Positions 1 through 37,621 of a stretch of DNA of 64,000 nt are shown piece by piece. Origin of the DNA: an uncultured Planctomycetales bacterium. Its GTDB lineage: Bacteria > Omnitrophota > Gorgyraeia > Zapsychrales > JANLHA01. The notes under the pieces are model-generated. The model had not been told where the DNA came from. It did not search any database and was given only the letters and a program-made list of their open reading frames with translations. The position numbers and the translations under genes are program-made. Each line of letters opens with the position of its first letter. Position 1 is the first letter of the stretch. Where the stretch lies: NCBI GenBank assembly GCA_964474085.1, contig CAYYRJ010000014.1, forward strand, positions 603-64,602. Direction: 5' to 3'.

Positions 1-10
1 TGTCTTAGGG

Positions 11-3000
11 ATGCAAGCAGCGTATGACCAATATTTAATAAAAAATCCTAAAACTGCAGTTGCTGTCAAGATAATTATTTCCCGCAAAGATGTTGACGAC
101 CAAACAGCAATTGAACAAACACAAAGATTAGAGATTTCCCAATCGGTTGAGTTGGCAAATCTTATCCAAGAGCATATTCATGTTCTGGAACGTGCTCCAG
201 TGCCAGCAAGGGAAGTTATTCATACGCTGAATGTTTTCTTGCAAAATATTGATTTGCTTTCACAGTTTACGCCAAGTTTGCGGGACTTGCCGGCCAGGTC
301 ACTTATTCGGGAAGTTTTGGCGCAGTTAAGATTTGTTTTGTCACGTGATCAATACACGGAACGTCACATGCTTTTGCTTATTGCAATTATTGAAAATAAT
401 AAAATAAGCCGAGAAATAGTTTTGCAGGCTAAAAATGTTCTTGATGTTTTCTTGTATAGCGCGCCTGTTAAAGCCGTAGTTATTACTGAGAAGGTGACTA
501 AAAGAGTTGTTGAGGCGTTTACTAAACCTCAATTAAATAGAACGCGGCATATTATGTTTGCGGATGTTTTACAAACGATTTTTAGAGTACAAACTGAAAT
601 TATTCAGGCTGTTAACGAATGGTTAACGCAAGCGGTGGATGCAGCAGAAGAAATTAATAAAAGAGCTGTTGTTGGGATGAGCATTATTTTTGAAGATTTA
701 CTTCAATTGACTCCTGCAAATAATCAAGATCGCGTCCTTATGCGACTTTTGCATTTCTTAAGTATTAAAGCTCTTGAATCGGTCGTCTATCAGTTGATTG
801 GGACAGCATTGGTCAATAAGACCCTTAATTTCCCGGGTCAATTATCCGATGATTTTATACAAACATTGTTTGAAACATTTGAGAAAAAAGAAATAGACTC
901 TCGTGCTTTAGTTGTCATGTCTGCGATGATTGCGAATCTCGCCCAAAGAAAATCACAGGTTATTCTTGCGCGCCGAGAGGCTCTTGTCGAAAGAGCGCTT
1001 GTTCTTATCCCGACTTTGAACCATTGGGGCGCGTATATTTCTTTACTCAATATGGTTGAAGCTTTGGGCGTTAAAACAAATCATATACAACATGACCTTG
1101 ATCGGTACTATCCAAACGCGACAGAAAGGATACAGCAAGATTTTGTGGTTATGGTCAATCGGATCAATCGTGAGCACCCTGGGTTTATTAAGAAAATTAC
1201 CATGATCACGTCTTCGTTTACGAAATTTAATATGCACTTTGGTTCTGACTTTGATTTTATGCATGTTTGGCATCGTGCGGATGCAGATTCGGAAGAAATT
1301 GCTGTTGTTAGAGCAAAAATTTTAGATGCCATATTTAATATGGGTATTTCAACAGGCGTAACACAATGGGATGAGTTAACTTTAATTCAGGAAGGGTTAG
1401 CGCATCCCATACATATTCTTTCGTCCGTTGAAATTGTTGTTATTTATAAGAAAAAGAGCTTTGATTTAAGTAAACGTGGAGAGCTAGACCCGCGTGAAAA
1501 AATTGTCGTGCGTTCCAAATTGTTTGAACAGCAAAACAATTTGCCGATGAAGCTGATGCGCAGAATACATGGCGTTTGGGCGATTGCGACTTTGCATGGC
1601 CAGCAATTGTCGCCGCTTTTTGTTGATCGAGAAGATTTGGAAGATTTGCGTGATTTGCATCGCCAAGGGTTTATTTATTTGGACGAAATGATGCACAAAC
1701 TTACGCCTCGCTGGAGCGAGCCTAAGACGATTGAGTATCATGTTGTGACCGCCTCCAGCGCGCTGATATCTGCGCCGATCCAGTATTTTAAGAACAACAG
1801 GTTGGCCGACTTTGCGATGGAAGTATTTATGCCTTTATTTGAGAGCACAAGAAAGCATTACGGGGAGCTGTTGAAGAAAGAGCGCAACGTAAGTTTTATG
1901 AGTCAGCAGAGTATTGTTGCCGCAGAGGTTTACAGCATGAAGGTGGCCGAGGGATTGGTGTATTACTTTATCGCGCGTAGCGAAAATGAAGCTTTGTCAG
2001 ATATTTCTTTTGATCAGATAGTGCGCAAGTTGATAGGCCAAAAGAAATCTTTGCCGATGGATAAATTGTATAAGCTGGGCGATTGGATATTTGTAGCGAC
2101 GCATGAGAATATCAAAAAGGTTTCTGGTGATTACACGGATGATAATAATAGATCTGTTTTTGAGCCAGTCGTTTCGTATCTTCAAGATGCGTTTGCATCT
2201 ATCCACGGCCAAGTGATTAAATTCGTATCAGTGCCCAAAACTCCAGAGAGTGATGCCGGATCCTCCAGCTCGGCGGTGGCTTCTAGCCCGGTTAAGTATT
2301 TTGAGAACAGCAGGTTGGCCGACGCTGTAGGGACGTTGCCGAGGAATTTAGAGAGTGTGTCAATGCAAGTATTTATCCGGCTATCTGCCAGCACAAGAAA
2401 ATATTACGGGGAACTGCTGAATAAAGAGCACGACGTAAGGTTTATGAGTCAGCAGAGTATTGTTGCGGCAGAGGTCTACAGCATGAAGGTGGCAGAGGGA
2501 TTGGTGTATTACTTTATCGACAGCAGTGCGAATGAAACTTTATCAGATATTTCTTTCGATGGGGTGGTGCGCAAGTTGATTGGCCAAAGGAAAGTTTTAT
2601 CGACGGATAAAATGTATAAGTTGGGTAGCTGGATATTTGTAGCGACGCATGTGAATACTGAAAAGTTTGGTGGCGTTTACCCTGATGATAAAAACGGATC
2701 TGTTTTTCAACCAGTCGTTTCGTATCTTCAAGATGCGTTTGTATCTATCCACAACCGCGTGATTCAATTCGCATCAGTGCTGAAAACCTCAAAGAGTAAT
2801 ATCGGATCTTCTAGTTTGGTTGTGGCAACCAATGACTTGCAACATTCTCAAAGTGTAAGTTTCTCGTCGATTAACCTTGGATCCGGACGAAAGCCGGCGG
2901 AGGTTGTGCAGGCATTGGGCGCCTCCAGCGCGATTGGCAAGGCCAGTTCTCAAGTTGGGCAAGACAGACTTAATGTCAACTGGGAAATGGTGGTTTCGTA

Positions 3001-6000
3001 TCTGGAAGCGATCGGTCTAGATTTAGACGGCACGCTTTATCACAATGCAGAGTATAGCCAACAATGCAGGAGCCTTGGTTTGCAATTTATTGCGAAAGAG
3101 AAAAAGATCAGCTTGGATATAGCGCAAAGGCAGTTTTTGAAAGCCAGAAGCAAGATGGCTTTAGAAATCGGCCATCAGCCGGCGGCGATGTATGTCCTTC
3201 CCCAATTAGGGATATCAATCGCCGAGTGGGAAAAATATTATAATGAGCACATGTTCCCTGGGAAATATATTGTTCGTGATGAGCGTTTGCAGGAGTTATT
3301 AATCCAAGCGCGCAGTTACGGGCTTAAGATCTTTTTGTTGACCAATAATACACGCACCCAGACGATCCAGATTTTAGCGGCCTTGGGGATCATTGATCTT
3401 TTTGATTTGGTGATTACCCGCAGTGAATTGCACGCGCCTAAACCTAGTCCTCGCGCCTTTGAGGCTGCAATAGAAATATTAGGTGTTATGCCGAGACGTA
3501 CGATTTATCTGGGAGATAGTCATGATATGGATTGTTCCCCTGCCCTAAAGGGTGGTATGCGCGCATTATGGGCGCCGATGGAAAATGGAAATATCTATTT
3601 TGCTCTTGAACAAATTATTAAATGGATGGTCATAGAACATCGCAAGCGCCAAGAAGATCCTAATTGGCAGGGGCTTGTTATGGAAGATTTAAAAGAAGCG
3701 ATGTCTCAAAATCATTTTGCGTCGAGTCCCCGCGCCTCCAGCGCGGCAGTGGATTATGTCGAGTTGCGCGCAAAAGGATTATTGTCGGACCCCGTTGTGG
3801 TGACAGTGGTTTTTGCTAAGGGGCAGTTAAGGGTAAACACGGTTGATCGGATGCGGCAAGACCAAGAAGCTTTAGTGGCTGGCTTTAAACAACAATTAAC
3901 AGCATGGTTATCGAAGTTCTCCGGCGCTCCGCCTTTGCCGGAGAACATAACGTTGCAAATTTCACTTATTTCCTTAAGATCAGGTGAAGTTTTTAGAGTT
4001 ACCCCGCAGGGCTTACAAATTAATCAAGCTGTTATCAATCTTCCCAAAATTCTTTCACTTCATATTTTAAATTATATCTTTATAAGTTATTTGACCTCGG
4101 ACGACGATGCTTTTGCCGCTGACTTGCAGTCGTTTGAAGGGGGCTATGCGCAAGGGCAAGTTGCATTAAATGTCGTTGAATTTATCGAGGCTGCTAGACA
4201 GTATCGTCTTGTTTTATCGGAACGTTTTGAATCGGCTTTATTAAATTTAGCTGTCAAAAATTTGTATGGTCATCTTAGCGGGAAAGTGCGCGGGTTTATG
4301 TTTACGGATTCTCAAGGTCAACCGGGGATTTACGCCGGATTTCCAAATTTTCCAAATGAGTGGGGACGGGATACGCTTATCACCCTTTATGGGTTAATGA
4401 GTTTGGGCGAAAGGCAGTTGTGCCTTGAAATTATTCTTAAGTGGGCGCGTTTGGTTGATGTTCGTCGAAAAGATGGCCGATTGATGCCTAATGGAATGGG
4501 CAATTGGAATACGAGCGATGCGCCTTTATGGTTGATTTTAAATGTTGGCGAATATGTGCGCAGGTTTAAAAATAGTACAGTTTTGGATGTCCCAATGACA
4601 GCTGACGCTAAAACTTTACGTGATGTTCTTCGGGAGATTGTTTTGCGTTACGCGATGACCAAAAAGGAACTTTCTGCTAATGGTATCGACGAGAACGGCA
4701 TTCATAGTGATAAGGCAACGGGCTTTATCTGGTCACCTAAGCAGGCGACATGGATGGACACAGTTAATACGCACCGTCAAGGTTACCCGGTTGAAATTAC
4801 CGCCCTTTGGTATGGCGCGCTGCGGACGATGGCGGATATTGACAGTGAATATTCTAATCGCTACCAAGAACTTGCGCAGAAAGTAAAAGAAAACTTTTTA
4901 TCTTACTTTTGGAATGATTCAGAAGAATGTTTGTTTGATATTTTAGGTACCGCCCATGTTGATAAAGCCATGGATGCAGTCAAGGATCCAGCAGTTCGTC
5001 CGAACCAGATTTTTGCGGTTTGGACAGGATTAGTCGACGGGCAAAAGGCGGATGAAATTTTAAAGAAAATTTACAGTGAATTATTGCTCCCCGGGGCTTT
5101 GCGTAGTCTTGCTCGTCCGGTAAAAAGATATCGTAGTGATTTTGATGCGCCCAGATGGCCTTATGCCGAGTATCAACCGTTTTATGAGAGTCAACAACCG
5201 GTGGAAGTTCGTGATCGCGCTTACCATAATGGAACCGGCTGGGTGTGGTTATATCCATTTTTTTGGGTAACGGCTGTTAACAGCGAGGCGCGTTTGTCAT
5301 ATACGAATGTTGACGATGCCTTATGGACCATGGTCAATGATTTGACCCGCTTGAGTCATGACCGGGATGAAAACACTTTCGGCTCTCTTCCTGAGCTTGT
5401 TGATGCGACAGCGTCTATCCTCAAAGATGTTCATGGGACGGAGTATCTCTATGCGCATCCTAAAGGATGCCGTCAACAGGCCTGGAGCGTGGCTATTTCG
5501 CTTTGGGGATTAGCCCAATTGGCGCAAAAGTACGGGATCGTCCTTGAGGATATCGAATTTCGACAATTTGGTTCAACAATAAAATATGTTCGTATAAATC
5601 CTGCTGCCGGCGAGAATGTCGCGGTTGGCCCTTATGAAACAATTTCCGTTGATATTATAGTTGAAACAACCGGCCCAGCTTGCCGTGAAGAATTAAAAAT
5701 AGAACTTTTTACGAACATGGATCATCCTGACGTCTGGCAGGCGATCTCTATTGATCCATCGAAGATTAGTTTAGTTTCTCAGGGCATCATGGGGAATGTT
5801 TATCAGGCGCGGATATCTATTGCCCCTCGAAATATTGGGCCTTTTGCTTTGACGGCACGGGCTCAATTTATTTATCAAAATCAGCCGACATGGGTTGGCG
5901 GTGATGTTCTCGTGATGGTTTATCGTTTGCCCAAATGGCTTTTAGCGCAGCGCTATCACCCGAGTTATATTTTTATTCCCGACATCCTCAAGGAAGGATG

Positions 6001-9000
6001 CTCTTTGAATTGGACAGGTTTGTTGGATTATTTAAGAATGCAAAAACAAAAAACCGGTAAAAATGTATTTTTCTTATCGCCGTTTTTTCCGACGGCAGAT
6101 GAATCACCGTTTGCGGCCATTTCTGTTTATGCGTTGAATCCTTCACTCGTTGACTGGGCGGCGGTTGAAGATATCGGAGCTAATCCTTTCGAAAAATTTT
6201 ATTCTTTTCGCAAACTCGCAACGGCTGCAAGAAGAGAAGCCTTTGCGCGCTTAGCTGCACACGAAGAAGTTGAGCGCTACGCCAGTTTAGTGCAGCGCTC
6301 TATTCTTGAGGGACAAGATTTGGTTTATGGGAAGTCTTACGAAAATATTAGTTTATTGAATCGTCAGGACATCCATGAGTTTCTTATGTATGAACAATTT
6401 GTCGGTTTTGAGCAGCTGCATATTTTATTAATGGAAAACGGCATTCGTATTTTGGGAGATTTGCCATTTTTCCGTGCAATTAACGGAACGGATGTTTTTT
6501 ATAGAAAAGATTACTTTGCTCAACTTTCCGGCGAGATATTGAGTCCCGGGTTTAAGGACCCTTGCGGCGGCAATGAACAGATTTGGGGGGATTTGGCGGC
6601 ATGGGACGAGAGAAGGATCGAACAGATGCGTGACAACGGCGAGTTTGATCCGCGTATTTTACCGTTTATATTTTGGGACAGTGTTTTTGCTCAGGTTTTC
6701 GAAGATCCTATTCATAAAATATCTGGATGGCGGCTGGATGCATTTCACTTTTATGGTCGCGGCTCTTATGCCGAAAATGCCCAACGGATTGTTTGGTCGA
6801 CGAGACTTTGGGATGACGTCGCTTTGTATTTTCAGGAGCATGATCTTTTGGCCATGGTTGAACAATTAGGCGGGGATGGGCACGCTTATTTTCATCTTAA
6901 CGCGTTGGGGTATTTGCAAATTGCTTCTTTGTTAGACAGCGTCCCTTGGAAGACGGTCGAGGCTTTTTATGCCGAGCTGCTTAATGTTACCCGCGGAATG
7001 TCTTATACCGTTGTTGACACGCATGACACGGCTCGGTGGGCTGCTGAATATAGCGGTGATTTTAAAAGGCTTGGAGGCCTTAAAGACGTTAAGTCTTCAC
7101 TTGAATTGTTTGGTCCTGCATTTTTGGGGCTTTTACTTTTAGGCCCGCAAATGGAAGGAGTTTTATTAAGTTTAGGTGAAAAGGGAACATTGGCGCCCAT
7201 TAAGAGAGAAGAACGCCGGGGCGGAGTTGTGATCCGTTCTCTCTGGGGAACCAGCGAACTTGGAGAAGTTGATTTTTCTGATGTGGTACGCAAGTGCGTT
7301 GATATTCGAGAAGCGCATCCGGCCATCAGTCATTCTCGAATGATACCCGTGACGACAACAGATGCAAGCGTTAAGGCTTTTTTGAAAAAATGGGAGAATG
7401 ATATTCTTTTGATTATGGCGAATTTTAGCAGAGATCCTAAAGATATTACTGTTGTGCTTTCCCGTTTTCATTTGGGTTTGGAATTGCCAATTTTCTTTGG
7501 CCGGCCTGTTACAGTAAAAATAGAGGATCTTATTGATGATCATGGTAATTCGGTTGTCAATCTTGGTTTGCAGGATCGGATAAATTTTAATCCTCGTCTT
7601 CTTCCCGGAGAGTTCGCGGTTTTTTCTATTGAAAGTAAAATTGCTTCGGACAAAGCTTCTTCAACAGTTTTAGACAAAGAGTTATTGCAAGTTTTAGGGT
7701 ATCGAAAGCGGCATATTTTGATTGTCACCTCCGAGGCGGCGCCGTTTTCGCAAGTCGGAGGTGTCGCCGATGTTTTAGGGGAAGGCGCTCTTCCGTTGGC
7801 TTTAGCAACGCTGGGAAATGACGTTACGGTCGTGACGTATCTTTATAACGGCATTGATCAAGAGGAGCATGGCATTAAAAATACGAATCAGACGATAAGC
7901 GTGCAGATCGGTTCTCGCGAGGAAAAAATGGCGGTTTACAAAAAGGCGATAAAGGTTGGGCAGGGGAGCTTGACCTATTTCTTTTTGCGGCATCCTGTTT
8001 ATTCGTATAAAGCTTGTATTGAAGCTATTGAAATCCACCGGACGGTTGCTGAATACGATCGCTTTGTAAACGAAGGGGTCATCAGCCAAGGACTGGCAAG
8101 CGAAGATACGTATCAGTCTTTAATGACGAGAGTTAGAGAAATCGGATTTAGAAAACTCGATCAACTTGATCAGCGGCATCTGATTTCGCAAGAACAGTGG
8201 CCGACGATTTATCAGATTCATGGATATATGCATCAGCTGGCTTTAGAACAAGTGCTTGCTTTATCAAAGGGAGCGTTGGAAATCGGGATGGGTTTTGTGC
8301 AGACTGTTGACATTGTGCATGTGCATGATTGGTTGGTCGCCATGACTTTGATGCTTATGCGCCGGCATTCCCGTTATGAACAAGCTTATCACGGCAAGAG
8401 AAGTATTATGACGATTCATAATCTAGAACATCAAGGAAAATTCAATATTACCCTCTTTGATTTGCTGGGGATTAATCGTGATGCTTTGAGTTTAAGCGGA
8501 TTAAGAGACGGGGAACGGGCCATTGAGGCCGCGGAGTTTGAGGGAAATTTGAATTTGCTTAAGATCGGGTTAGTTTATGGTCTGATTAACACAGTCAGCC
8601 CAACATATGCTTTAGAAATTTTGACGCCTGAATTTGGAGAGCGGCTGGATGGGTTTTTGAAATACTTGTCGAGCATAAGAGGAAAGATTAGAGGGATTAT
8701 CAATGGTGTTGATTATAGTCTTTGGAGTCCGCATGTGGACAAGTATTTGGCGCAGCTTCAGGGCGATGGGCGCTATTCGCCTGAAAATATGTCTGGAAAA
8801 AAACTTGCGAAAGCAGCACTGCAGAAAGAATTTGGTTTGGCGCCCAGAGAAGATGTTTTTGTTTTAGGTGCGGTTTCACGCTTGGTTAATCAAAAGGGAT
8901 ATGATTTGGTTGTCGGGATTGATCCTAAATTTTTAACACAAGATATTCAGCTGGTCATCTTTGGAACTGGCGATGTTGGGATTCAGGAAAAATTACAGCG

Positions 9001-12000
9001 TCTGATGGCCGCTTATCCGGGCAAGGTCAGTGTCAAGTTTGGATTTGACAGCCGGATCGCGCATTTGATTATGGGCGGATCAGATGCGTTTCTTATGCCT
9101 TCGTATTATGAGCCTTGCGGCTTGACCCAGCTTTATAGTAAGCGTTATGGGACACCGCCGGTCGTTCATCGCACGGGTGGGTTGGCGGATACGGTTAAAG
9201 ATGAGCAGACGGGATTTGCTTTTGAACAATACTCAACGCAGGCGATGCAAGGCTCAGTATCGCGTGCGCTTGAAATTTATTATCACGACAAAGATCGCTG
9301 GAACCAGATGATGCGTCGTATCATGGCAGAAGATTTTTCATGGAATCGGGCAGCGGAAGAATATGTGCAGTTGTATGAAGAAGCTTTAAGCGCATCCTCT
9401 AACATTATCGTTGAGATTGACGCGCGTGCGCTGGGGATGCGGCTTTCGCAAGTTTCGGATGAGTATTTGGATTGGCTTAAAAGTTTAGGTTTTAATGCGG
9501 TTTGGATTAAAGGAATATGGCAGCGAAGCCCATTTTCACAGGAAGCGATGACGCATTGGGGAAATCATCACCATGAAACTTTGCGTCGTTGGCATTCGGC
9601 GTTTGATGTGTATCGTTATGCGCCGGATCCCAACGTCGCTGCTGACGAGGACGAGGTTATTGCGTTTGCCCAAAGGCTTAAAGATCGCGGCATGATTTTG
9701 ATTCTTGATTTTGTGACCAATCACATTGCCATGGATTCACCGGAAATTTTAAGAGTGGAAGGATTAGCTACAGTTTATAAAAGTGACAATGATTATATCC
9801 GAGCTGTTCGCCAAGAGTTTGAAACTTTGCGAGGAAAGTCTGATACGGAAATTCTCGATTTATTAAATGATCGTTGGCTTTGGCATTTTTATCGGCATCC
9901 GCTTAATCCTAAGATGATTGTTCGTCGAGCTAAAGAACATTCTTTGGGCCCAGCGATGACAAGTTTAGCTCAGATTATGCTCATCAATAAAGAAGCCCGC
10001 CAATTTATGATTAAAGAAGTTTTGGCAACGATTGCGCGTTTGACTTTAAACGGCGGCATGAGAGCGGATTTGGCGTATTTAGGGTTATGGCTGCATATCC
10101 GCAATACCTGGGGTTGGCATTTGTCCGACGAAGATATTCAGAAAAAGATGCCAAGAGAATTTTGGGATGAATTGATGCAGGCGGCTCATAAACAATATTC
10201 TGAAATGATTTTTTTGGGGGAAACTTATGAGGCCGATTGGCACATCGAATTTGAGCAGTGGAAAGGTCGGGCAGGCCGTTTGCAGGAATTTGGGGTCGCT
10301 ACATATAACAAAGTTATTCTCGATTTGCTGCAGAAGGGTGATATAGCCAAGCTGCGCGGATATGTTTTTATCGATGCCCCGAGGGAGTTTATAAGAAATA
10401 GTGTTGTGTTTACACAGAATCATGATGAGTTGCCGGCGCTGGATGCTTTCGGAAGTCTTGATCGGACTTTGGCCGCAGCGGTTATCTCTTTTTTGGTTGG
10501 CAGCGAGTATGTCCTTCTTCCTTTGGCACAAATTTTGGGAATGCGCAGACCACAAGGCGTTAATATTGAGATGAAATCCCCCGATGCGGGTATTTATGAA
10601 TTTTATTATCCATCACGGGAAGATGCTGACCAAAGAGTTTTAACGGCCTTTGAAGAAATTTTACCTGTCTTGACTCGATTGATATTAAGAGGCAGGTCTT
10701 ATAGTGCAAGATTAATTAATCCAACGCAAGATCAGTTGGGTGGACTTTTCCCAGTGGTTTTTCATAATGACGCTGAGGATGCTTTTGCTATTGTCAATTA
10801 TTCTGATCAAGGGAGAAATGTCGTCGCCGACATAATGGATATGGATTATCCGTCCAATCCTCAGCAGACGATCAGTGGTTTTGATAAAGATAATATTGAA
10901 ATTTTAAAGTCCACCGGTGTTCAAGTTGTCATTCAAGGCAATTTGGTTTATCTGGAGCTTCCTCCGTATGGGTACGCGAGCGTTGTGTTTCATAAATCGC
11001 CGGTTCTCAGCGGAGCCTCTTCGAGTCTCATAAATCTTTATGACCAGGACATTGAATTTGGGCTTAAGAGTGGGCGTTTGTTTGAGGTGGAATTGATTCC
11101 GGATTTCTTTTCGCATCGTGACCAATATTATGAAGACGAAATTATTACTGCTGGGCTTTCTTACGAAAATTCACGAGATTTGTCACCGATAGCCGTTATT
11201 TTGTTGCAGTATATTCTTAATCTTTTTGTTGGAGAGAATGAAACACCGCGTCTTTTAGAAACCGGCTTGGGTGCAGGTTTTGGTGTTTCGCAGATGCGAA
11301 ATATTGCTCGTCGGATGTCGATTCCTGTCAATATCGAGGCCGGCGGTTTAACGCCGATTGCACCACGCTATCTTTGGGCAGAAGGGATGTCAATAAGTGC
11401 TCTTAAAAAGTTGATTTATCAATATGTGAAAGATCATCCCAACAGCTCTCTGCCGGGATTAGAAGAATATAGGACAAATGTCAAGCAAAGGCTAATAACG
11501 CAATATTTGTTTGATCAACAAATTACAGATGTCTCTTTAATGCGGCTTCACGAATATGCTTGGCGTTTTAATCATGAATCAGAAGAATTTGCCGATGCTT
11601 TGAATATTCCTTTAGAAGAAGAAATCGTCAACGCGGCAATCAAATGTTTAACGATCAATGTCCCCTTGGCGCTGGCGATTGCTTTACAGCAACAAGGATA
11701 TAAAGTATTTGAATTTGTAGACGATAATTCTATTCCAAGACAAATTATCGGAAGATTTACAATCGCTTCGTCTAAGATGACAGCCGGTCAACATTTTATC
11801 CATGACAGTCTCGGCGGAGTTTATTACACCTTTAACCATGCTCGTTCACGGCAAGAAATTAAAGAGACTTGGGTTGCTCTAAGAAGGTTATTGCATCCCC
11901 AGGGGATTCTGATGTTTTCAGCCTGTTATTACATTGGGCACATTATTGAAACAGCGCCGCAAGATTTCTTTGCCGTGGCAATGGTTGACGAGCAAAAGAA

Positions 12001-15000
12001 TTCGACATTATTCTTTTTTAAAGTCAGTCGTCACTATCAGCGTGCGATGGATATTTTAAGCGCAATTAAACACAGCCGGCAAGAAAATATTGTCAAGTTA
12101 TCCGGCGGCGAAATTGATATTTTCTTAGATCGTTTTACAGCCAGCTCGTTGCTATCTTCCCTAAATATTAAATGGTACACATTGCCCAATGGCGAGAAGG
12201 TCCCCGTCGATATGGATGAAACGATTTCGAATGAAGCGAAGAAAATAAGGGATTTTGTTTTGACGCTTAACTCGGCATTTCAGGACTTGTTGAAAGCTCA
12301 GGAATGGTATCCGAAGGTTTGTGTATTAGCGTCACTGATTTTAGCCCAACTCTTGTCGATAAAATTTGGAAATGATATTGAAACCGAATTTATCAATGGC
12401 TTATCAAGACTTGGGAACGACTCTCATGTTTGGTTAGAGATAACAGTGATTACGACCGGCGAAAGATTTTATATTAGTTTAACCGACGGACAATTTATTT
12501 CAGGCTTAAAAGGAACTATTGTGGATTATTCAACTATTGATTCTGTTGAAGAATTACGAGATCAATTGCCGTTATGGATTTTTGGCAAAGTATATTCTCA
12601 AGCCGGGTTTGATTTTGTGAGGTTTAAGCGTCTTGATGAGCATTTTTCACCTGCGCAATTTTATCATTCTATAAAGACTGTTTACATCCCGTTGGTACCT
12701 TTAACTCACCATTATATTATGCTGACGACTCAGCTACAAAACCGTATTAGCGACTGGCTTTCGCTCGGTGTAAGCCAAGATGTGCAATTAAGAATGCCGA
12801 CCAATAATTCGCGTTTAGAGAAAATTGTATATTTGGTTGAACTGTTGCAGGCGCAGAGCACTGCAAATAAACGCGTTGCCGCCTCGGCGGTAAACTCTTA
12901 TCAATATAAACCTGGAGTAAAGGTTACTGTTTGGGAGGCGAATTTAAATAATTATCAAACACATATTATCGTGGCAAAGAATTTAGCAGGACGTTTGTAC
13001 CCCGTTGATCGACGCAGTAATACGTTATATTGGCAAGAAGGGGAGTTTAAAACCAGATTAGATAAACAAGCTGTGCGTTCGCGGGTTCCTTTGATAGAAG
13101 AATTGATGAATGAATTTTTAAGAGAACATCCTGGCTCTGAGATTGAAACAGTAACGGGAAATGAAAATCTTTTTTATAATGCTCCGATCGTTACTTTGAT
13201 AGGCGATAAAATTTATTATGCAATAGGTGAAGATGTCCAAGCACGTAATTATCCAATGTATGTCGTTTGGCCGGATGGCCGTAATACGATTGAAGAAAAT
13301 GTCACATTTAGGTTTTTAGGCGAGGATAAACAGAGAGTTCGAGTCTATGTTGACGGGAATACCGCTTCGGTCAATTATGCCACAGTTGTGCAGTTGATAA
13401 AGAATGAGAAAGGTTTTGTTTATCCGAACCCTCAAAATGGTTTAGCGTATTTTTATGACGACATTAAACATTTGTTTTCTATGCCATTCTTTGGCTATGA
13501 GCATCATGGAGTCAGCGGGTTAATGAGTGATGGTATTTTCTTTATGGCGGACCAGTTTTTGACTGATAAAACGCGAATAAACCGCTATTTTGCTGAGCCT
13601 TTTACCAAGCAAGAATTTAATTTAACTGCGGCATTGATTGACCGTCGTGGTCGGGAACTTGAGGGAGGCTGGAAAATCGCTCCAGACTTGTTGCGTGATG
13701 GTCTTTCAAAATCAGGATATGTTCCAGATGACTTTGAAATTGATTCTGTTAGGAATGTGATTTCTATCCGTCTTAAGGAAAGCGTATATCCTTTTCATAT
13801 TGTTGGTGTTACTCAATCGGGTAAGGTTAAGGAGATTGTTGTTGAGGGGCTTTCTGGTCGTATAGGGGTAAGCATCCGAGAAGCGGCGAAGCTTTCTGAA
13901 AAAGAGGGATTGGTAAAAGCAGGGATTGTCGACCAGGGATTAACTGTCCGCTTGGATGTTGACGGAGAACCTATTGTTAAAAGTATGGTTGATGCTGCAG
14001 ACCCGCTTGGACCGCATGCGACTTCTTTAATTGTCTATGTGAAGAAAAATAATCAGATAAGATCTTCTATGGGTTTGGTGATCAAAAATCAAATTACTCG
14101 TCAAGGGTTCAGCGACTTATTGACGGACAGAAACGCCAGCGCGCCTGTGACCGGCCCGCCGGTAGAGAATTTTATTGCTTCTGCATCGAGCTTATCTTTA
14201 GCTGTCAGCTTCGGCAGCAAGCTTATGCCAACGTCAAGAAAAAGTATTAACTTAGAGCATTGGAGTGCTAGTTCGAGTGTTGATTTAGAATATGTTTTGA
14301 AACAAGGAGGAGTTGAGCTGATAGAAAATAAGACTGGAGTAGTTATTGTTGTGGCGACAGTTGAGGCTTATCAAAGGATTTATCAATCGGCGGGGATGAT
14401 TAAGTTAGGTGAAGAACAAAAGGAAACATTATCTTTTAGTAAATTTCTTACTGTCGATGAACTTCGAAGGGTTTTGTATGTGATTGTTCCGTTTTTAGGA
14501 AAAGAAAGTATATGGCGGGATCTGTTTTGGACAATGCGAAATGAACTTTCGGATTACTTCGCAAAAAATGGCCAGTGGCCACTCACGGTTTCTTTAATGA
14601 GTTTAGCCCAGCGCATTATGATTTTTGTTAATGGTTCAGATTTAGGGCTTCCGGGTGTTCATGACACGGTAGTTGTTAATTCTTTGCATCATTTTATAAA
14701 GTTTTACCGACAGTATGCACAAGGAGCCATTTATAATCCATCAGATAATATCCTCGGGTCTTCTTCTTACAGCCATACTAAACTTTTTAGTTGGATTTAT
14801 TTTGTAGAAAATAATGTGGTGCAGGGTTTGTTACGTCAAGGCCTAGAGAATATTTCGCTTCTGGATTTGGGATCGTCGTATGGCCATTCATTGTTAGTCA
14901 AACGTGTTATTTTGCAGGATGCGCCGGTACGGTATTTCGGAGTCGATATTCAGCCGGATTTGCTTGGAGCTTCTACTCGGTATGTGATGCAACAACAATA

Positions 15001-18000
15001 CGATAATATGATTTTTTCTAAAGTTGATGTTGAGATTCCTAATTGGAAAGCTCGCGTTTTTGCATTAAATTCTGGGAATCTTTTTGATGTCGTTACGGCA
15101 AGTCATTTATTAGAGCATCTTGATTCAGCCGAGTTGGTTGAAACAATTTTAAGTTGGTTAAGTTTGGCGAAGAAAGCGCTCATTGTTTCTGTGCCATTTG
15201 AACAGAAATTAAGCCATATCTCGCAGCATAAAACATTCTTTAACCCAGAACGGTTAGGGGCTTTGGCTAAGACAGTAAGCCAAAAGGCAGAGCATAAGTT
15301 TATTGCGCATCTTCAACATCTTAACTCAGGGATTGTCGTTTTTAGTGCATCGTCCACGATCTTGGAAGGTGTTGAGGATGTCATAAGTTATTATAATTCC
15401 TTAGATTCAAACAAAAAGTCTAAATTGCGTTTTGATCTTGCCGAATTGCTAGTGGCTAATTATTTTGATTCTCCTCAAGAAGTTGAGTCAATATTTCGGC
15501 GAATTTTTCAAGACGAGAGCTTAGATTTTCAAACGGCAATTTTTGCTTTGAGGGAAATTTTGATTCAACCGATGGCCAGCTCATTGTGGGTTTTAGAAAA
15601 CTTAAACAAGAAATACGGTATACGTATTACAGTTTCTGATCTGATCAGAATTTTTACGGCTTTTCAAGGAAATCATGTTGTCCAAGATATTATTCGTTTC
15701 AACAGTTCTGGATCAAAAGTGTTAGCGGTTGCTCGCGGAGTTATGCTTAAGAAGAAATCTACCACATATTATTTTGATGTTCAGACAACGGATACTTGTC
15801 CGTCTCTTTGTACAAAGTGCTGGAGATATTATCAGGATGATGGGGGGGTCGCGCATCTGATGCCTCGAGAACATCCCACCAACTTTGTGAGGCCATCTTT
15901 TACTGATTTCCAGAGGGTCTTTCATCAGGCTATTGACTTAGGAGTTGAGAGTATCGCCAGTACGGGTGGAGGAGAACCATTTATGAATTTGCAGTTGCCT
16001 GAATTATTGGCGGATGCTAAGGCTTATGCAGTTTCAAAGGGTATTAATCTCCGAGTGTTCGTGCCGGTTAGTGGGCTTGGACGCGTTTATAATGATCCTA
16101 AGAAGTTGGAATTAATTATTAACACGGTAGATCTTTTGCGGTTTAGTTTCGACAGTTTTGATAAAGATTTTGTTATGAAAAATCATGGGGTCAGTGAGGC
16201 TGGTTTTAACATGATGCTTAGGAATTTTCGTAAAGTTGTAGAATTAAAACATCACTTGCAATCTAATATCGACATTGAAGTGTTGATTTTGTTATATCGA
16301 GGGAATTATCAACACGCTGAGACAACTATTGAGAAGGCTTATGAATTGGGGGCAACGCGTGTTTTGATTAATTCAATAACTGGGAATGATGCAGTTGCGA
16401 TGGATCAAGAAGAAGCCAAGTTAAGCGCTAGAGTTTTACGGCGTATTTATGAACGTTTGGCTAATGGAGACTTTGGGGTGATGCAAATTGATTTTGATCC
16501 CGTCTTGATGGGAGGGTATGCGAACATTTCTCAAGTCGATCGAAATAACTTAGAACGACCACTCGGGAATATTCGTTACTGTATGAAAAACGTCTTTGGA
16601 TTAACTCCTGTTGTTACTGCAGATGGCACTTTTCATGTTTGCTTTCCTTGTTCTCAGCCGAATATTGCTAACAGACAAGATATTTTTAAGATTGGGAACA
16701 TTATGGAGGATTCAATAGAAGCTCTAGTTGCTCGCATGCGAGATAATTATCGTGATATTGATCCCGAAGAAGATTGTATTAAAGATTGCAGAGATATCCC
16801 ATATTTTAATGGGATTTTTCGTAAAGTAATTGAGGATATTTTATTAGGTATTCCGGTAACGGCACAACCATTTTTAGACCGTAGCGATCCGAAATTGATT
16901 GTTAGCCATACTCTGCATTCGGAAGTTTTTAATCAAGGAAATTTGTCTGAAGTTATGGATGAAATGAATGATGCGAGCCGTCAGGTATTTAATGATAAGG
17001 TTTCAGATTTTAAAGAATCTGTGTTGTTGATTGAGCAGGGAAGAGTAGCATTTGATCCTAATAACCTCGCAGAAGGCGTTGTAGCGCTACTGTTCGACAG
17101 GTATCAGACAAGAAATATTTTTGATATTCATGCAGTTCGATGGGAAGAGAAAACGTATCTTTTTTCTTACGACATTAGTATGCTTTATGAATTAGGGAGC
17201 AATGAATTTATAGATTTTATTGACGTTGATCGGTTGCCTGCTATTGCGCAAGATTTCTTTAAAGATTTACACCGTAAGCAATCAATGGGGGATATCTATA
17301 TTGATGATTATCCGGCACTGTTTTCAGAGAATTTCCCTCGGATACGGCGTGCAAATACACAGCCTGTTAATGTTACATTTTATATGAAAAGCAGTTTATC
17401 CTCCGACAAATCAGCTTCTAGTGGAATAAAATCAGAAAACGTTGCTGCTAACCAAAGGTCGCACAGTTTATTGCCTCAGCCAAATGCCAGCTCAGCTTCA
17501 ACGGTAATGTCTGTGGTTGCCCCAAGTTCTGGCGAAAACCCATACGTATCTTTTTCTGATATCCAGCGACTGCATTTGCCATATGGTGAAAATGTTTCGT
17601 TATATGGTGATTATTCGAAGATTTCCAAAGAAGCTAAAGAGGTGAGAGATTTTGTTATGACGTTTAATCCTGCTTTTCAGGGTGCGTTGCGAGATGATGG
17701 ATTCTACCCAGCGGTTTGCGAGGTAGCGTCGAATATTTTAGGACATTTACTTTTAATAAAATTTGGTAATTTTGTTAAGGTTGAGACTGTTGTTGGAATA
17801 GGGGTAGAAGGAACTCATTTTGGGACACAGATAACAGTTATAAATTCTGGAGAAGTATTTTATATTAACGCGACGGACGGACAGTTTATTTCTGGGTTGA
17901 AAGGATTGCTCTTTAATCATTCAGATATCGATTCCGTCAGAGAATTATATAGGTCATTGTCGCCAAATCTGTCGAGGCAAATATATGCTCAAATGGGGTT

Positions 18001-21000
18001 TGACTTTGTAAGTTTTAGAAGGGTTGGGGAAAGTTTCTCGCCGTCTATGTTTTATGACTTTATATTTATTTTTGATTCTGTGGCATCCAGTTTTCCCGAC
18101 GATAATATTAGTATAAAGGTTATCAGCCAGCTAGAAAACCGTATTAGCAACTGGGTTTCGCCCGATGTAAGCCAAGATGTGAAATCAAGAATGCCGTTAA
18201 ATTATTCGCATCTAGAAAAAATTGTACGTTTGGTGGAGCTTTTGCAGGCGCAGGGCGCTGAAAATAAAATTGTTGCCGCTTCAACGGCCAAAGAGGCAGC
18301 AGCCCCTGAAGATTTAGTAGAATTCTCCGTCGAGCCAAACGCGAGCGCGCCTGTGACCGGCCCGCCGCGTTATGTGTTTTCTTCCACTGTTTTTCCTTCA
18401 AGTTCTTCGCCTCTCAAGCCTCGACAACAACACACAAAAAATTTGGATTCAAACAAGCCTTCTCTGCGGGTTTTAAAAGATATCCACAACGCAAGTGATT
18501 ACTATCGCCAATTGGTTGGAGAATTAGAAAAGCTGCTCGCCCGGATCGATAAACATAATCAAGGTTTACGCGGTCATAGTGAACGCACGGCTTTATACGC
18601 TTTAGTTTTAGCTGACAAGCTTGGGGCTGATCTTTTTGATGTGTATATTTCGGCACTTATTCATGATGTTGGAAAGTGCAGGATTAGCAATCATCTTTTG
18701 GACGGACCAACTTTAACGAAGAATAAATTTATTGTGTTAAAAACACACGTAAGCAAAAGTGGCGGGATATTAAAAGCAAGATATCCTCTCTTAGATAGGG
18801 ATTTCGCATTGGGTCATCGATATCATCATGTTCGTCCCGACGGGAAAGGTTATCCGAAGTTTTTTGGTAAACAGGTGAATGAAGTTGAGCGGCAAGTAGT
18901 CTCAATTGTTTCGGTAGCGGATGCCTTTGATGCGATGACGGATCAAAGGACCTATAATCAGCAGGTTTCGCCCTTGATCGCTTTACGGCGGATTTCTGAG
19001 GCAAGTGGAAAACAATTTGATCCGACGGTAACAGGCGCCTTAAATGCTTTGTATTTTAGCAATAGGTTTGACGTTGTTGAATTAGAGAATTTGCCGCTTT
19101 GGGTGACGTCGGTTCTGCATAAGATGCTTTTAATCCAAGTCCCTGAAGGTGCTTGCTGTTGGCCGGACAATTTGTTAAACGTAAAGTCTAGATCCAGCGC
19201 GCCTGTGACCGGCCCGCCGGCTGAGCAGTTTATCGTCGTCTCTGCTCCATTGTTCCCCTCTTCCAACGCAGTTAGCCATTTTACAGATCAAACAAGAATT
19301 TCTACAGATTTAAGTCCGCTTATTCTTAATGGCGTTAGTCCTAATTTGTTTAGAAATGTTAGCGAAGTCCATTTGATCGCCGCTGGCGGAGGTGGCGATG
19401 TGGATAGCGCGATTCTTCTGGCTTTAGGGTTGCGTCGAATTCTTGGCGAAAATATAAAGATTGTTATTTTTACCACTAACGTGAAACACGCTAAAGAAAA
19501 CCCTATGGGCTGGCCGCTTCCCGTCGGAAATATCATTAATATTAGAACTGGTCAGCCGATTAAGCCTATCCCGGGCAGCGAGCATATTTATCGCATTGTC
19601 CCCGGGCTTATTGTTCAAAACGAAATTTTGGATGATGCCGACCGACCGTATCGCGTCGAAGTCCCGCTTTCAGATAGTCAGATGGTTGCTCGTGGGCTTG
19701 CGCAAGGGATTGAACTTTGGATGGTAGATGTTAGCCAAAGTGCAAAAGATTTAGCCCAAGATTATTTACGCTCGCAAAGCGATGACGTTAAGAGAAAAGA
19801 GCGTGTTCTTATCAGTCTTGATGTTGGCGGAGATAGCCTTGCGCGGTTCCCGTACTCAATAACTTCACAGAATAAGCAAACGCATCCGGAGCGGTTTATT
19901 TGCTCGCCGGTGACCGACATGATTATTTTAAACATGGTCAGTGAATTAGAGCGAGTTTTACACGCAAACGTTTTCTGGGCTGTTTCAGCTTTAGGCGGTG
20001 ACGGAGAATCAACCCCAGAGGTGCTTGAGTATATGCGCGAATATTATGCCGCGCAAGAAATCGTCGGCGTTCTGGATAATATTCGTTTGTTTAATGAATA
20101 TATAACCCGTCAAGATGCCCTCGTTCTATATCAAGCGCTTGCGACGATACCCAGCGAAGTTTCAGGAAACCTTTTGAAACGTCTTTTTGCCATTTCTGGA
20201 CGGCTTGATGAAATTCGTGGATTAGTTGATCGGCAACAAAATGTAGACCTTAAGCGTTGGGTGATGAGCTCGCAATATTTGCAGCAAGGTTTTCATCCTC
20301 AACAAATGTTTGATGCCAATTATATGACGCAGGCCCTTGCTCCAGTATTGGCAGCTTCACTGAGAAATGGGACTCGTCGCGAGTTATTGTCCCAGGCGTA
20401 TCCACTCACGTTTTTCTTTCGTCCGTCGTCGATTGCGTCAAAAGTCCGTAATCCTGATTTTGGCAACGCAAGGCTTAATTGGAAACAAATGGAAAGGGCT
20501 GTGCGGGGATTTGGTTATACGACGGAAATATCTGATTCACAAATGATTTGCAAATTGCAAGAAGCAAAAACCGCTGTGGGTGTTGTTGCCGCTAGTTCGG
20601 TTCTTTCTTCATCAACCTTTTCTTTGCGCGAACTTTCGATAAATATCAAACAGGCGCAGTTGTTGTTAAAAGAACTGGGGCTTGTACACGAACTGGCCGC
20701 TAATGTGATCCAACCGCTTATGCAAGAAGTCGGCGCTTGGCAAGACAGAGAATTGCGAGGCGTATTTTATAGTTTACTTAAAAGTCAAGCTGTCCCTATT
20801 TTATCCGACGGAAAAATCATTTTTGAAAATACGCAGGGCGTTGGCATCGATGAGTACGGCAAGCTTACTGTTGATGCGAAAATTCGCGAAGGCTTAAAGG
20901 TAATCGGATGTGGCTGCGTCTTTGCGGACATGGACGATAATCTTGCCCCGAGGGAAAGTCCTTTCCCTGACGCAATCGTTAATGCGATTTTGGAATTGAT

Positions 21001-24000: not shown

Positions 24001-27000
24001 TTTAGTTGTAGCTCCGTTGGATACCAGCACCATCGAAAATGCTCGTCAAGTTGACGGACTACAGCCAGTCGATTGGTATGTCGAGCAATTGCTCAATGGC
24101 GATGGCAGTGTCAAAAAAGATGTTATCGCGGATTTGGATTTACGTTATATCCAAATGCTCGTTGAAAACTATCGCGCTCAAGAGAGTTCCGGCCAGCCGA
24201 TCTTGGACATTAATGGCGCAGAGATTTGGTTGGAGGACGAAAATCGTGCGGCAGTTTCTTTAAGAGATTATCTGACATTTAAGATTACGCAATTTTTAAA
24301 GTGTGTTAACCAGGAACCTAAGCCTGAGGTGCGCAAGCCCAGCGATCCTTCCAAAGAAGCCAAAAAGCCCCGCGGTTCATTTACGCCGTCGGCAGAAGAG
24401 TTAGAATTAATTCAAAAACGATATAAAATTCGTGTTTGGACAAATATTTTTACTGCAGGAGTTATGTTGAGTTCTCCTCGCGATCCCAGCCAGCGGGTAG
24501 AGCCAAAGATTGGTTATGCCAAGGATAATCCCGAGCATTTGCGCGAACTTTTAAGGCTTCCCGCGATAGAAACGTCCGTTGCCAGCTCAACTCTTGTTTT
24601 TGGCGATGATAGAGCTTCGAAAACATCGGCGGTTGTCGAGCCGTTGCGGTTAATTATGCGGATGGGAGAGTTTTTTGCACAGTTCACAGGTTCGTTTGCG
24701 GTTCCTGCTCGGTTACAGCATACGGTCAAATCATTATTTGCTTATAAAGATATTGTTGAGCAGCCACGTATTAAGGCCTTGCTTAACCGGGTCAATGCAT
24801 CGTCGTGGAATTATGTTATTACTGATTTTGATGCTTATCGATTGGCACTGATGTTCAATCATGTTCCTCAGGGCGCTTTAGGCGTTGCTTTGCCGGATGG
24901 AACAATTATTTTTTATGAACCTTATTTATCTGCCCAACAGCCTTATCTTGTTGCTCATGAATTGCAGCATAGAATTAATGATTTGGTTAATCGAGAAAAA
25001 CAAACACAAGCCGTTGCTGCTGGAAGGACAGCCATCGAAGTTTTATTTTCTGAAATTGTTCTTGGGAATGTTTCATCGAAGGCTTTGACGCAGCTAATCA
25101 ATCTCAGGGAATTATTTATCAATGAGTATGGCTCCCAATTAGGGTTAGATGAACTGATTGCTTGGCTTGTTGTTGGTGCCTATCCCAATTGGATGTATGA
25201 TCGAGCCAATCCAATTGAGTCGACGGAAGAAAAGAAATATTTTAGTTCTGTCAGCAATGGGCAGGGAGAAACGCTAGGTTTGGTTAGACGTTTTCTTCAA
25301 AAATTGACCGCAAGCGACAGAGATGTTTTTTCTCGTTTTTATCAACAAGGTTTAGGCGTCCCGTACAGTTTTGATCCTGACGGTATTCATTTAGTCGCCA
25401 GTTCGGGTGTTGCTCATAATCTGGTTGCGAATCGTCAAGAGGTCATTGAAATGGCGATGTTTAAATTTGTGCGGCTTGCCTTGGAATCTGTCGAAAATTC
25501 AGGAAGTTTTGTCGTCGTTTTACCCGGCGGAAAAACGGCGCGGGATTTTTATTTAGCTTTTGCGGCGCAAATTGATCAAGTGATGAGCGTAGAATTAAAT
25601 TCGTTAAGTCCAAAGCAGAGAATTGATCGCCAACATTTAGAAAGCATTTTGCCGCAGACCATTTTTATTCCTTTGAATACTTCTATTCGCGACGGACAAA
25701 CAGATACGCAAACAGTTTGGCTGCCTTTATTTGAAACGTTAATGACTTATGGCTTGATCAAGCCAGAACAGATTTTGCAGATTAATTATTCAGGTCCAGC
25801 GTCACCAGAACAAAAAGCTTTGGATTTGCAAAATGCCATTGCGCAAAGACTTAAAATACTCAAAAAAGAGAAAGTGGACTTGGCCCTTGTCGGTATCGAT
25901 GAGAATGGCCGCTGGGCAGGGATTGAGCCGCAAGATGATTATGTCCTCAATTCGCAGGAAATGTATGTTTATAGCCAAGAGACAACACATTACACTTTTA
26001 CGTCATATTTTATTTTAAATAGGGTCAATCAAGTAATCGCTCTTCTTTCCGGCGGGAATAAACGTTGGGTTGACATGCATTTGACGACACATAATTCGCC
26101 TGATCGGCGCGATGTCCCTGCGGTCGATTTGCGAAATCATCCGCATGTGCTTGTGATTATTGACCAAGAAGCGCGCACTTTTCCGACAGAAATAATTTCT
26201 TATTCCGACTCGGTCAGCGGGCAAAAGCTTGAGACTGAAATATATTTAAATGTCCAGCGAGAAGTTGATGGCATAAATCTCCATGAGCAGCCAGTTATTA
26301 TTGGGGTTCATGGCCATTTGATGCGGGCATGGAAACCGATTTTGGCGATGCCTCAGTGGAGTAAAGAGAACTATATTTTTGCTGACTTAGCCCGTCGTCC
26401 TAAAGTTGACGATATACAAGCATGGCGCAACACGGGTTTGAGTGATGATGAAATTTATATGTGGCAGACAGCTTTGCATATCCAAGCGGCTATTGCGCAT
26501 TTTATCCAGCAAGGCCATCCAGTTGGCCTTGTGATGCATTCGATTGCCAATGAGTTTCTTAATTTCATCTTAGCTAATCTTAAGACCAAACTCACCCTCT
26601 CCGATGGAAAACAATATCAGCCTTTGGAGTTTATGGAGGAGAATATCAGCCGTATCCCAATCGTTCTTGTCAATCCGTTTTTTGCTCGACACAATTTTCG
26701 CGCGGCACTAGGTGTTTTGCAAATATTTTTAAAATCAAATTTTCCGTCGTGGATTTATTGGCCATGGAAAGTATTCTTAGAAAACATTCCTTCTAACTTA
26801 GAACAAAGTTTTGATAGATCAACCAGAAGATTCGTGCATTTTTTAATTAATAGAACAGCCGCTGTGGCATCAATGGCAACACGCATTCCGTATTTTGGCA
26901 AGTCGTTTCGGAACGTCATTGTTAATAAAATTGATCGTATGGAGGAGGTCCCGGATGAATTTAGGGCTGATATTATCGAAGAGTTTGATAATGTCGTTGC

Positions 27001-34798: not shown

Positions 34799-34869
34799 GT
34801 GTTTTCCTTTCGTCATTCTGAGGAGCGCAGCGACGAAGAATCTTGTAAATAAGAGATCCTTCGCTTCGC

Positions 34870-37582: not shown

Positions 37583-37621
37583 CGCAACCATAATTTGAAA
37601 TTTCCTATCAACACTCGACAA

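Follow-up and report, generated by a model that had tools for sequence, protein, structure and literature searches.

A block of putative glycogen-turnover enzyme units, bordered by a recurrent junction motif, within a giant open reading frame of an Omnitrophota bacterium

The DNA examined here (64,000 nt, positions 603 to 64,602 of contig CAYYRJ010000014.1 in assembly GCA_964474085.1, deposited as an uncultured Planctomycetales bacterium; hereafter the window) begins with a giant open reading frame (ORF) in which a HAD-type phosphatase, a GDE_C-type debranching domain, a GH77-like domain, a GlgA-type glycogen synthase of glycosyltransferase family 5 (GT5) and a GH13-like domain follow one another in one frame (Table 1; nucleotide positions are those of the window and amino acid (aa) positions those of the giant ORF). 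An initial annotation, made from the sequence without database searches, had described these five domain types as fused, and profile hidden Markov models (HMMs) place all of them within nt 2945–11014, its coordinates for the block being correct to ~50–150 nt. GDE_C, GH77, GT5 and GH13 are each recognized by HMMs, GH77 and GH13 only just over threshold. All four motifs quoted in that annotation are present (YHNGTGWVW at aa 1738–1746, SPFAAISVYALNP at aa 2032–2044, EAAPFSQVGGVADV at aa 2575–2588 and NHD at aa 3470–3472), and with every mappable catalytic residue retained the domains do look functional rather than decayed. A Pfam scan likewise bore out that no GlgB, GlgC or GlgP signature occurs anywhere in the giant ORF.

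Table 1. Features of the enzyme block and of the giant ORF that contains it
Feature	Residues (aa)	Position (nt)	Strand	Basis
Giant ORF containing the block	11,001 codons	11..33016	+	Stop-free; Pfam matches along one frame
Two ASS motifs just 5' of the HAD unit	971 and 978	2921..2950	+	
HAD-IA phosphatase unit	979–1236	2945..3718	+	Pfam PF00702 and PF13419
Two ASS motifs, HAD/debranching boundary	1237 and 1242	3719..3742	+	
Debranching unit (1,306 aa), GDE_C and GH77-like, no internal junction motif	1243–2548	3737..7654	+	
N-terminal region (~190 aa) of the debranching unit, family-less, not GDE_N		3737..4306	+	Pfam, none at E<=1
GDE_C/GH133-type amylo-alpha-1,6-glucosidase	1433–1828	4307..5494	+	Pfam PF06202
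Ig-like beta-sandwich	~1857–1970	5579..5920	+	
GH77-like clan GH-H (beta/alpha)8 barrel and GH13-type C domain	~1984–2540	5960..7630	+	
ASS motif, debranching unit/GlgA boundary	2549	7655..7663	+	
GT5 glycogen/starch synthase unit	2550–3127	7658..9391	+	TIGR02095; alignment to E. coli GlgA and barley SSI
ASS motif, GlgA/GH13 boundary	3128	9392..9400	+	
Divergent GH13 unit	3129–3668	9395..11014	+	Pfam, 27.4 bits; invariant columns in alignment A2
ASS motif, block end	3669	11015..11023	+	

No in-frame stop lies 5' of the ATG at nt 11, all three preceding codons being open, so that the giant ORF may extend beyond the window and its 11,001 aa are a minimum; AGGG directly abuts this ATG (window 1–13). 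An ORF of 33 kb at a GC content of 42% cannot be due to chance. An artefact or an alternative genetic code was ruled out by the normal gene lengths of the neighbours under table 11, since the rest of the window holds normal-sized bacterial genes under the standard code, including mutL, mutS and those for a TonB-dependent receptor, ferrochelatase, accA and an L,D-transpeptidase. Pfam identified ~12 distinct enzyme families along the giant ORF, which in this respect has the make-up of Omnitrophota giants (at least 10,000 aa, many Pfams, none dominant); outside the block these comprise radical SAM, methyltransferase, HD, CofD-like, 6-phosphogluconolactonase-like and RelA/SpoT-like HD domains. The nearest matches to the MutS of the window are from Omnitrophota metagenome-assembled genomes (MAGs; 57–63% identity) and from a contig labelled Planctomycetales (L007; 91%), and by these MutS relatives the organism is assigned to the Omnitrophota. 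In L007, an orthologous giant ORF adjoins mutL and is 69–74% identical over the C-terminal ~2,700 aa, with a ratio of non-synonymous to synonymous substitution rates (dN/dS) of 0.22, compared to 0.08 for MutS. Thus, the giant is a conserved gene under purifying selection in the part covered by L007, whose contig ends before the glycogen block, the dN/dS covering only the comparable C-terminal part.

Within the debranching unit, GDE_C scored 174 bits for PF06202 (cutoff 21). The unit as a single-sequence query found no match in the PDB and a profile was needed: one built from nine GDE_C relatives matched the glycogen debranching enzymes (GDE) of human (E 2.6e-35) and Candida glabrata (E 2.4e-31). 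Moreover, D1241 and E1492 of the C. glabrata enzyme, mutation of which abolishes glucosidase/debranching activity (PMC4837477), align to invariant columns that correspond to D1583 (WMD) and E1795 (LPE) in the window. For the segment that follows, the initial annotation had suspected a beta-sandwich resembling a carbohydrate-binding module (CBM). A beta-sandwich is indeed predicted at nt ~5579–5920 in an AlphaFold model (residues 18–131 of the modelled unit; predicted local distance difference test score (pLDDT) ~70–90), with a fold that is Ig-like and not CBM-like.

The next domain had been named GH77. This stands insofar as amylomaltases are the nearest structural matches of its barrel, and it has to be qualified insofar as the domain is a divergent member of clan GH-H, with an added Ig-like N domain and a GH13-type C domain, that scores below the NCBIfam malQ cutoffs. 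A GH77-like profile matches amylomaltase structures (E 8e-6), and R2241/D2243, E2284 and H2338/D2339 are invariant in seven sequences (alignment A1); the structure model puts the catalytic residues where strands b4 and b5 end and shortly after b7. By motif position, rather than by residue-level alignment to solved GH77 enzymes, D2243 is the predicted nucleophile, E2284 the acid/base and D2339 the transition-state stabilizer. Family GH77 is not known to have a GH13-type C domain; the C-terminal ~110 aa of this domain, which depart from the family in this respect, are matched by TreS and GlgE C domains.

The combination of these domains recurs. A HMMER scan with aa 1380–2560 over 1.84 billion representatives yielded 2,300 matches. 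In ~30 of the best 150 of these a GH77-type domain shares a chain with GDE_C, mostly with GH77 preceding GDE. GH77 scores are unambiguous in some such GH77–GDE proteins (113 bits in P0140, 121 bits in P0078), and bacterial proteins of ~1,450 aa with GH13/hDGE_amylase, GDE_N and GDE_C reproduce the eukaryotic GDE plan. In seven of eight other giants, GH77 and GDE lie together within one unit delimited by short recurrent motifs of the kind described below, whose sites fall 2–105 residues outside the domain ends (2–42 in six of the seven). This strong recurrence of a GH-H transferase-type barrel with GDE_C supports the two-step debranching that we infer for the 1,306-aa unit, which looks like a bacterial equivalent of the bifunctional debranching enzyme of eukaryotes. 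It shares with that enzyme (AGL/Gdb1, a GH13_25 transferase plus a GH133 glucosidase) a GH-H glucanotransferase-type barrel and GDE_C on one polypeptide as well as the conserved catalytic Asp/Glu pair of the glucosidase, but its transferase-type domain is GH77-like instead of GH13_25/hDGE_amylase and C-terminal to the glucosidase, GDE_N is missing and the unit is embedded in a far larger chain. The bacterial GlgX/4-alpha-glucanotransferase fusion (NF011083, PRK14510) also joins a debranching activity to a GH77 transferase; in that case, however, the debrancher is a GH13 isoamylase-type GlgX that acts directly, and not GDE_C, and, with the cutoff at 1322 bits, the window scores 17. The unit would represent a recurrent two-activity debrancher with a transferase from a different family and, at 1,306 aa, it is small enough to be expressed and assayed. 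Free-standing GH77-like–GDE genes in three other loci (L085, L087 and L089) had no glycogen genes among their neighbours.

The GT5 unit is matched by Pfam Glyco_transf_5 and Glycos_transf_1 (aa ~2570–3115; 169.5 and 70 bits) and, at 442.8 bits versus a cutoff of 328.45, by the NCBIfam glgA model TIGR02095, which points to the ADP-glucose type. Aligned to E. coli GlgA and barley SSI, it keeps HVHDW (2770–2774), E3034 (the Glu of E-P-C-G-L) and TGGLADTV, with ~70 extra residues separating the GT5 N-terminal motif from the core, and its identity to free-standing GlgA is 35–44%. The K-x-G-G-L motif is altered: its lysine, described as strictly conserved in GlgA (PMC2576272), is Gln here (Q2581, in QVGGV). 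Substitution of this residue had been named beforehand as evidence against a working enzyme, but of the 120 closest relatives, which are without exception free-standing GlgA proteins of ~490 aa, 17 have Gln at this position, among them the annotated GlgA of Desulfomonile tiedjei, which argues that Q2581 does not reflect decay.

The last unit of the block has a Pfam Alpha-amylase match just over threshold (PF00128, aa 3152–3410; cutoff 22), and NCBIfam gave weak alpha-amylase matches only. Nevertheless, a profile of seven relatives matched 95 GH13 structures, the best being a trehalose synthase (E 2.5e-13), and residues of the four GH13 regions are invariant in alignment A2 (I, D3233/N3237/H3238; II, R3351/D3353; III, E3404; IV, H3471/D3472), with D3353, E3404 and D3472 forming the catalytic Asp/Glu/Asp triad. 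By these signatures the unit belongs to GH13, probably to a subgroup that has yet to be described. A free-standing homologue of 580 aa (P0152) is 38–41% identical to the GH13-like unit over its full length, and its gene lies directly 3' of a free-standing GH77 gene (locus L081); the latter was considered as kin of the window GH77-like domain and rejected, being unrelated and of a different type.

At the start of the block, Pfam HAD and HAD_2 match aa 999–1187 (nt 3005–3571) with 70 and 67 bits, the DxDxT nucleophile motif is present (D1004-L-D1006-G-T1008), and the HAD-IA superfamily models are matched above their cutoffs (PF13419, 67.5 versus 23.8 bits; TIGR01549, 31 versus 23.3). The more specific assignment of this domain as beta-phosphoglucomutase-like did not hold, with 38.6 bits against a cutoff of 189.4 for TIGR01990; the best NCBIfam match, TIGR02253, is itself below cutoff and the domain is a generic HAD-IA.

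The weak GH77 and GH13 scores and the K-to-Q change in GlgA, together with a faster evolution of the giant than of MutS (70% versus 91% identity to L007), might be taken to mean that these domains are decaying, non-catalytic relics of gene fusions. We consider this very improbable, given that the mapped catalytic residues are all kept and are invariant among relatives at 25–50% identity, that the same K-to-Q change is found in free-standing annotated GlgA proteins, that 33 kb contain no stop or frameshift, and that the dN/dS in the part comparable with L007 is low at 0.22.

These assignments make it probable that the block represents four enzyme units for the cytoplasmic turnover of glycogen, a storage alpha-glucan, inside a multi-enzyme giant of the Omnitrophota, a phylum whose MAGs have been inferred to synthesize glycogen (PMC8542988). 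In the debranching unit, the transferase would trim a short branch by moving its outer glucosyl residues, leaving an alpha-1,6-linked glucose stub for the glucosidase to remove, in a two-step ("indirect") debranching like that of eukaryotic GDE, while the GT5 unit would elongate alpha-1,4 chains and the GH13 unit would hydrolyse or rearrange alpha-glucan. The block would thus amount to a glg operon at the protein level, with enzymes for synthesis and trimming in fixed co-expression in the cytoplasm. Like the classical operon known from E. coli and its relatives (glgB-X-C-A-P), it would couple expression of synthesis and degradation enzymes of one polymer, but it would do so in one frame, without GlgB, GlgC or GlgP and with GDE_C plus a GH77-like domain in place of GlgX. 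The pathway-like order seen in the initial annotation is not supported, since the same enzymes occur in other orders among relatives: GH77-GDE-GH13-GlgA (GT5), with the four enzymes on one chain, in P0140 (2,684 aa), GDE followed by a GH13-like unit in the giants P0012 and P0032, and GH77 before GDE in the proteins mentioned above. Co-occurrence is therefore conserved and order is not. P0140 (L089:8498-16564, + strand) is a compact stand-alone version of the enzyme set, has no enriched junction motif and is encoded next to type II/IV secretion ATPases and a phosphate transporter.

Several observations weigh against this interpretation. The PF02446 (Glyco_hydro_77) match, at 29.2 bits versus a cutoff of 25, covers only aa 2118–2171, or 54 of 465 profile positions; the GH77-like domain scores 24.9 bits where the NCBIfam malQ cutoff is 205.65, and its structure model is mediocre (mean pLDDT 62). 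GlgA has Q2581 in place of the K-x-G-G-L lysine and, with GlgC, GlgB and GlgP not in the ORF, the block does not make up a whole pathway by itself. No close relative spanning the block itself was found in protein and genome-collection searches; a genome-collection scan with the GDE–GH77 segment returned no relative but also failed to recover the source genome itself, and the full 2,680-aa block as query for a word-indexed protein search gave no match, probably an artefact of its length, as shorter queries worked. Finally, relatives such as P0001 open with a signal-peptide-like sequence, which makes a non-cytoplasmic location conceivable.

Location bears on whether the block might act at or beyond the envelope on foreign polysaccharide (prey or host glycogen, or cell-surface glycans), as proposed for other Omnitrophota giants, and not on the cell's own storage glycogen. 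Most published giants are membrane-anchored with a proposed action on prey surfaces, the free-standing GH77-like–GDE relatives P0001, P0002 and P0006 have hydrophobic signal-like N-termini, and the N-terminus of the giant ORF may lie outside the window. However, the nucleotide-sugar donor that a GT5 synthase requires is present only in the cytoplasm; this donor requirement is established biochemistry. Moreover, no hydrophobic transmembrane segment occurs in or near the block, the sole strong hydrophobic hairpin among 11,001 aa being far from it (aa 9231–9267), and the remaining domains of the ORF are cytoplasmic-type enzymes. Action at or beyond the envelope is on this evidence improbable, and turnover of cytoplasmic glycogen is the reading that we retain.

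The borders of the units share a short signature. In the giant ORF the tripeptide ASS is present at 25 sites, compared to 4.4 ± 2.1 in shuffled sequences, and every one of them falls outside the homology-defined domains (permutation P = 5e-5). Besides those that border the block units, sites are found along the whole ORF (e.g., at nt 1751, 2279, 12140, 15347, 20591, 25397, 27293 and 28274), and the extended junction consensus is small-A-S-S-small-hydrophobic. The junctions lie ~5–25 residues from the positions at which free-standing homologues begin or end. Codons differ among the ASS sites, indicating that conservation is at the peptide level. A DNA-level repeat or recombination site as the source of the junction motifs was ruled out by this codon variation, seen for ASS as well as for the LDNGG motif of L084.

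L084 and L086 are 22-kb metagenome stretches that lie wholly within giant ORFs. In the former (L084:2-22066, + strand), the pentapeptide LDNGG is present at 16 places along 7,355 aa in the context (E/D)(E/D)[CP]LDNGG, almost all wobble positions of [CP]LDNGG vary synonymously, and a GH77-like domain, GDE_N and GDE_C form one uninterrupted 1,830-aa unit between two LDNGG sites. The extended LDNGG sequence resembles a double-glycine site. Over-represented motifs elsewhere are RSELR (14 times in P0106), GARLA (nine times; P0107 and P0032), ASLG (ten times; P0016 and P0018) and PLTAIP (eight times in the ORF of L009), and there was no enriched motif in the related giants P0012, P0007 and P0017. 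In addition, the unit of the window between the junctions at aa 9095 and 9422 (nt 27335–28282, aa 9109–9424) corresponds in L007 to an unrelated cassette of ~325 aa (ORF aa ~842–1166) flanked by the same motif type. It is in this replaced unit of the window that the ORF has its single strong hydrophobic hairpin.

The ASS signature at the unit borders may thus mark where the chain is cut. If so, the giant would be a polyprotein, a precursor cleaved at ASS by an embedded or a separate protease to free the HAD, GDE–GH77, GlgA and GH13 units, and the fusion would be a device of gene expression and not a working multi-enzyme particle. In favour of this are the excess of ASS and its exclusion from domains, the consensus maintained with varied codons, the presence in other giants of junction motifs of their own, with wobble variation in that of L084, the closeness of the junctions to the ends of free-standing homologues and the cassette swapped between two junctions in L007. 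Moreover, West-Roberts et al., who found GT5 glycogen-synthase-like domains in giants, proposed their cleavage into several products and stated that the cleavage points were not known (bioRxiv 10.1101/2023.11.21.568195). On the other side, Pfam found no protease domain in the ORF (in ten unannotated units searched at E<=1, no protease and no other family was detected), paired Cys...His...Asp modules gave an unusable model (pLDDT 45), P0012, P0007 and P0017 lack an enriched motif, and conserved hinges or docking motifs are also compatible with the junction motifs and would yield the same sequence statistics. We hold cleavage at ASS as a tentative proposal, rather less likely than not. Known processed polyproteins, with viral 3C/nsp5-type sites or with double-glycine leaders and C39 peptidases, resemble the giant in having a lineage-specific short motif at every unit boundary, but what would be released here is a set of everyday metabolic enzymes from a cellular organism. 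The broader view, that multi-enzyme giants of Omnitrophota are true bacterial polyproteins in which each lineage has its own cleavage motif and a co-evolving protease and units are exchanged as cassettes at the junctions, is likewise tentative and less probable than not.

Some unannotated units and peptides between the junctions have features of their own. Two paralogous units (window 12149–12910 and 17543–18310; aa ~4047–4300 and ~5845–6100) are 50% identical and share a conserved Cys...His...(T)DGQF pattern that recalls thiol proteases of the papain or transglutaminase type; P0007 has a stretch resembling them, and the AlphaFold2 model has a pLDDT of 45. The only HExxH of the ORF (HELQH; window 24956–24970, aa ~8316) belongs to a short unannotated unit with an ASS site on either side, and short units with an HExxH-type or HEhxx motif also occur in the giants P0012, P0082 and P0126. 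Both this unit and the paired Cys/His/Asp modules are candidate processing proteases at most. A near-identical peptide, (N/S)(A/S)SAPVTGPP, is present three times (window ~14141, ~18347 and ~19199; aa 4712, 6114 and 6398), each time just past the end of a unit, and may be a second junction or docking element. Upstream of the block, two tandem unannotated units of ~175 aa (window 1760–2815, aa 584–935) share SQQSIVAAEVYSMKVAEGLVYYFI and each has a Ser-rich junction at its end.

Giant ORFs are common, and mostly unannotated, in Omnitrophota (PMC10066038), and a "multi-enzyme metabolic" class of giants with a sugar-metabolism module has been described, with PF08323 in 153 long proteins (bioRxiv 10.64898/2026.06.07.730766). 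The multi-enzyme fusion in the window belongs to this class, already reported for the phylum in preprints. It has in common with the multi-enzyme or Archaeovorin-type giants the phylum, an ORF of more than 10,000 aa tiled by many enzyme Pfams, and the recurrent PF08323 starch-synthase, GT1, HAD, methyltransferase, radical SAM and HD domains, but the published giants are mostly membrane-anchored whereas the ORF of the window is almost without transmembrane segments. As a further example of such giants, the fusion alone would not surprise specialists of the phylum. GDE_C, debranching enzyme, amylase and junction motifs are not mentioned in the main texts of the two preprints (bioRxiv 10.64898/2026.06.07.730766 and 10.1101/2023.11.21.568195). 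Should the motifs be cleavage sites, giant genes could be divided computationally into their real products, the function of giants and the question of one chain or many would become directly testable, and the junction motifs would provide the first map of the cleavage points that published work states as missing.

Downstream of the giant ORF, and convergent with it, lies mutL–mutS (window 33020–37443, − strand). A large ORF also sits beside mutL in several Omnitrophota MAGs (L002, L003, L007 and L009), which may be a preferred site for giant genes. The one in L007 is the sole true orthologue among these, those of L002, L003 and L009 being in the same position with no BLASTP similarity (E<=1e-5) to the giant of the window. 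Beyond mutL–mutS is a strongly A-rich segment (window 37595–40780, + strand; AT skew +0.29) that encodes a 1,061-aa Lys/Glu/Gln-rich, coiled-coil-looking protein with a signal-like N-terminus and one TPR.

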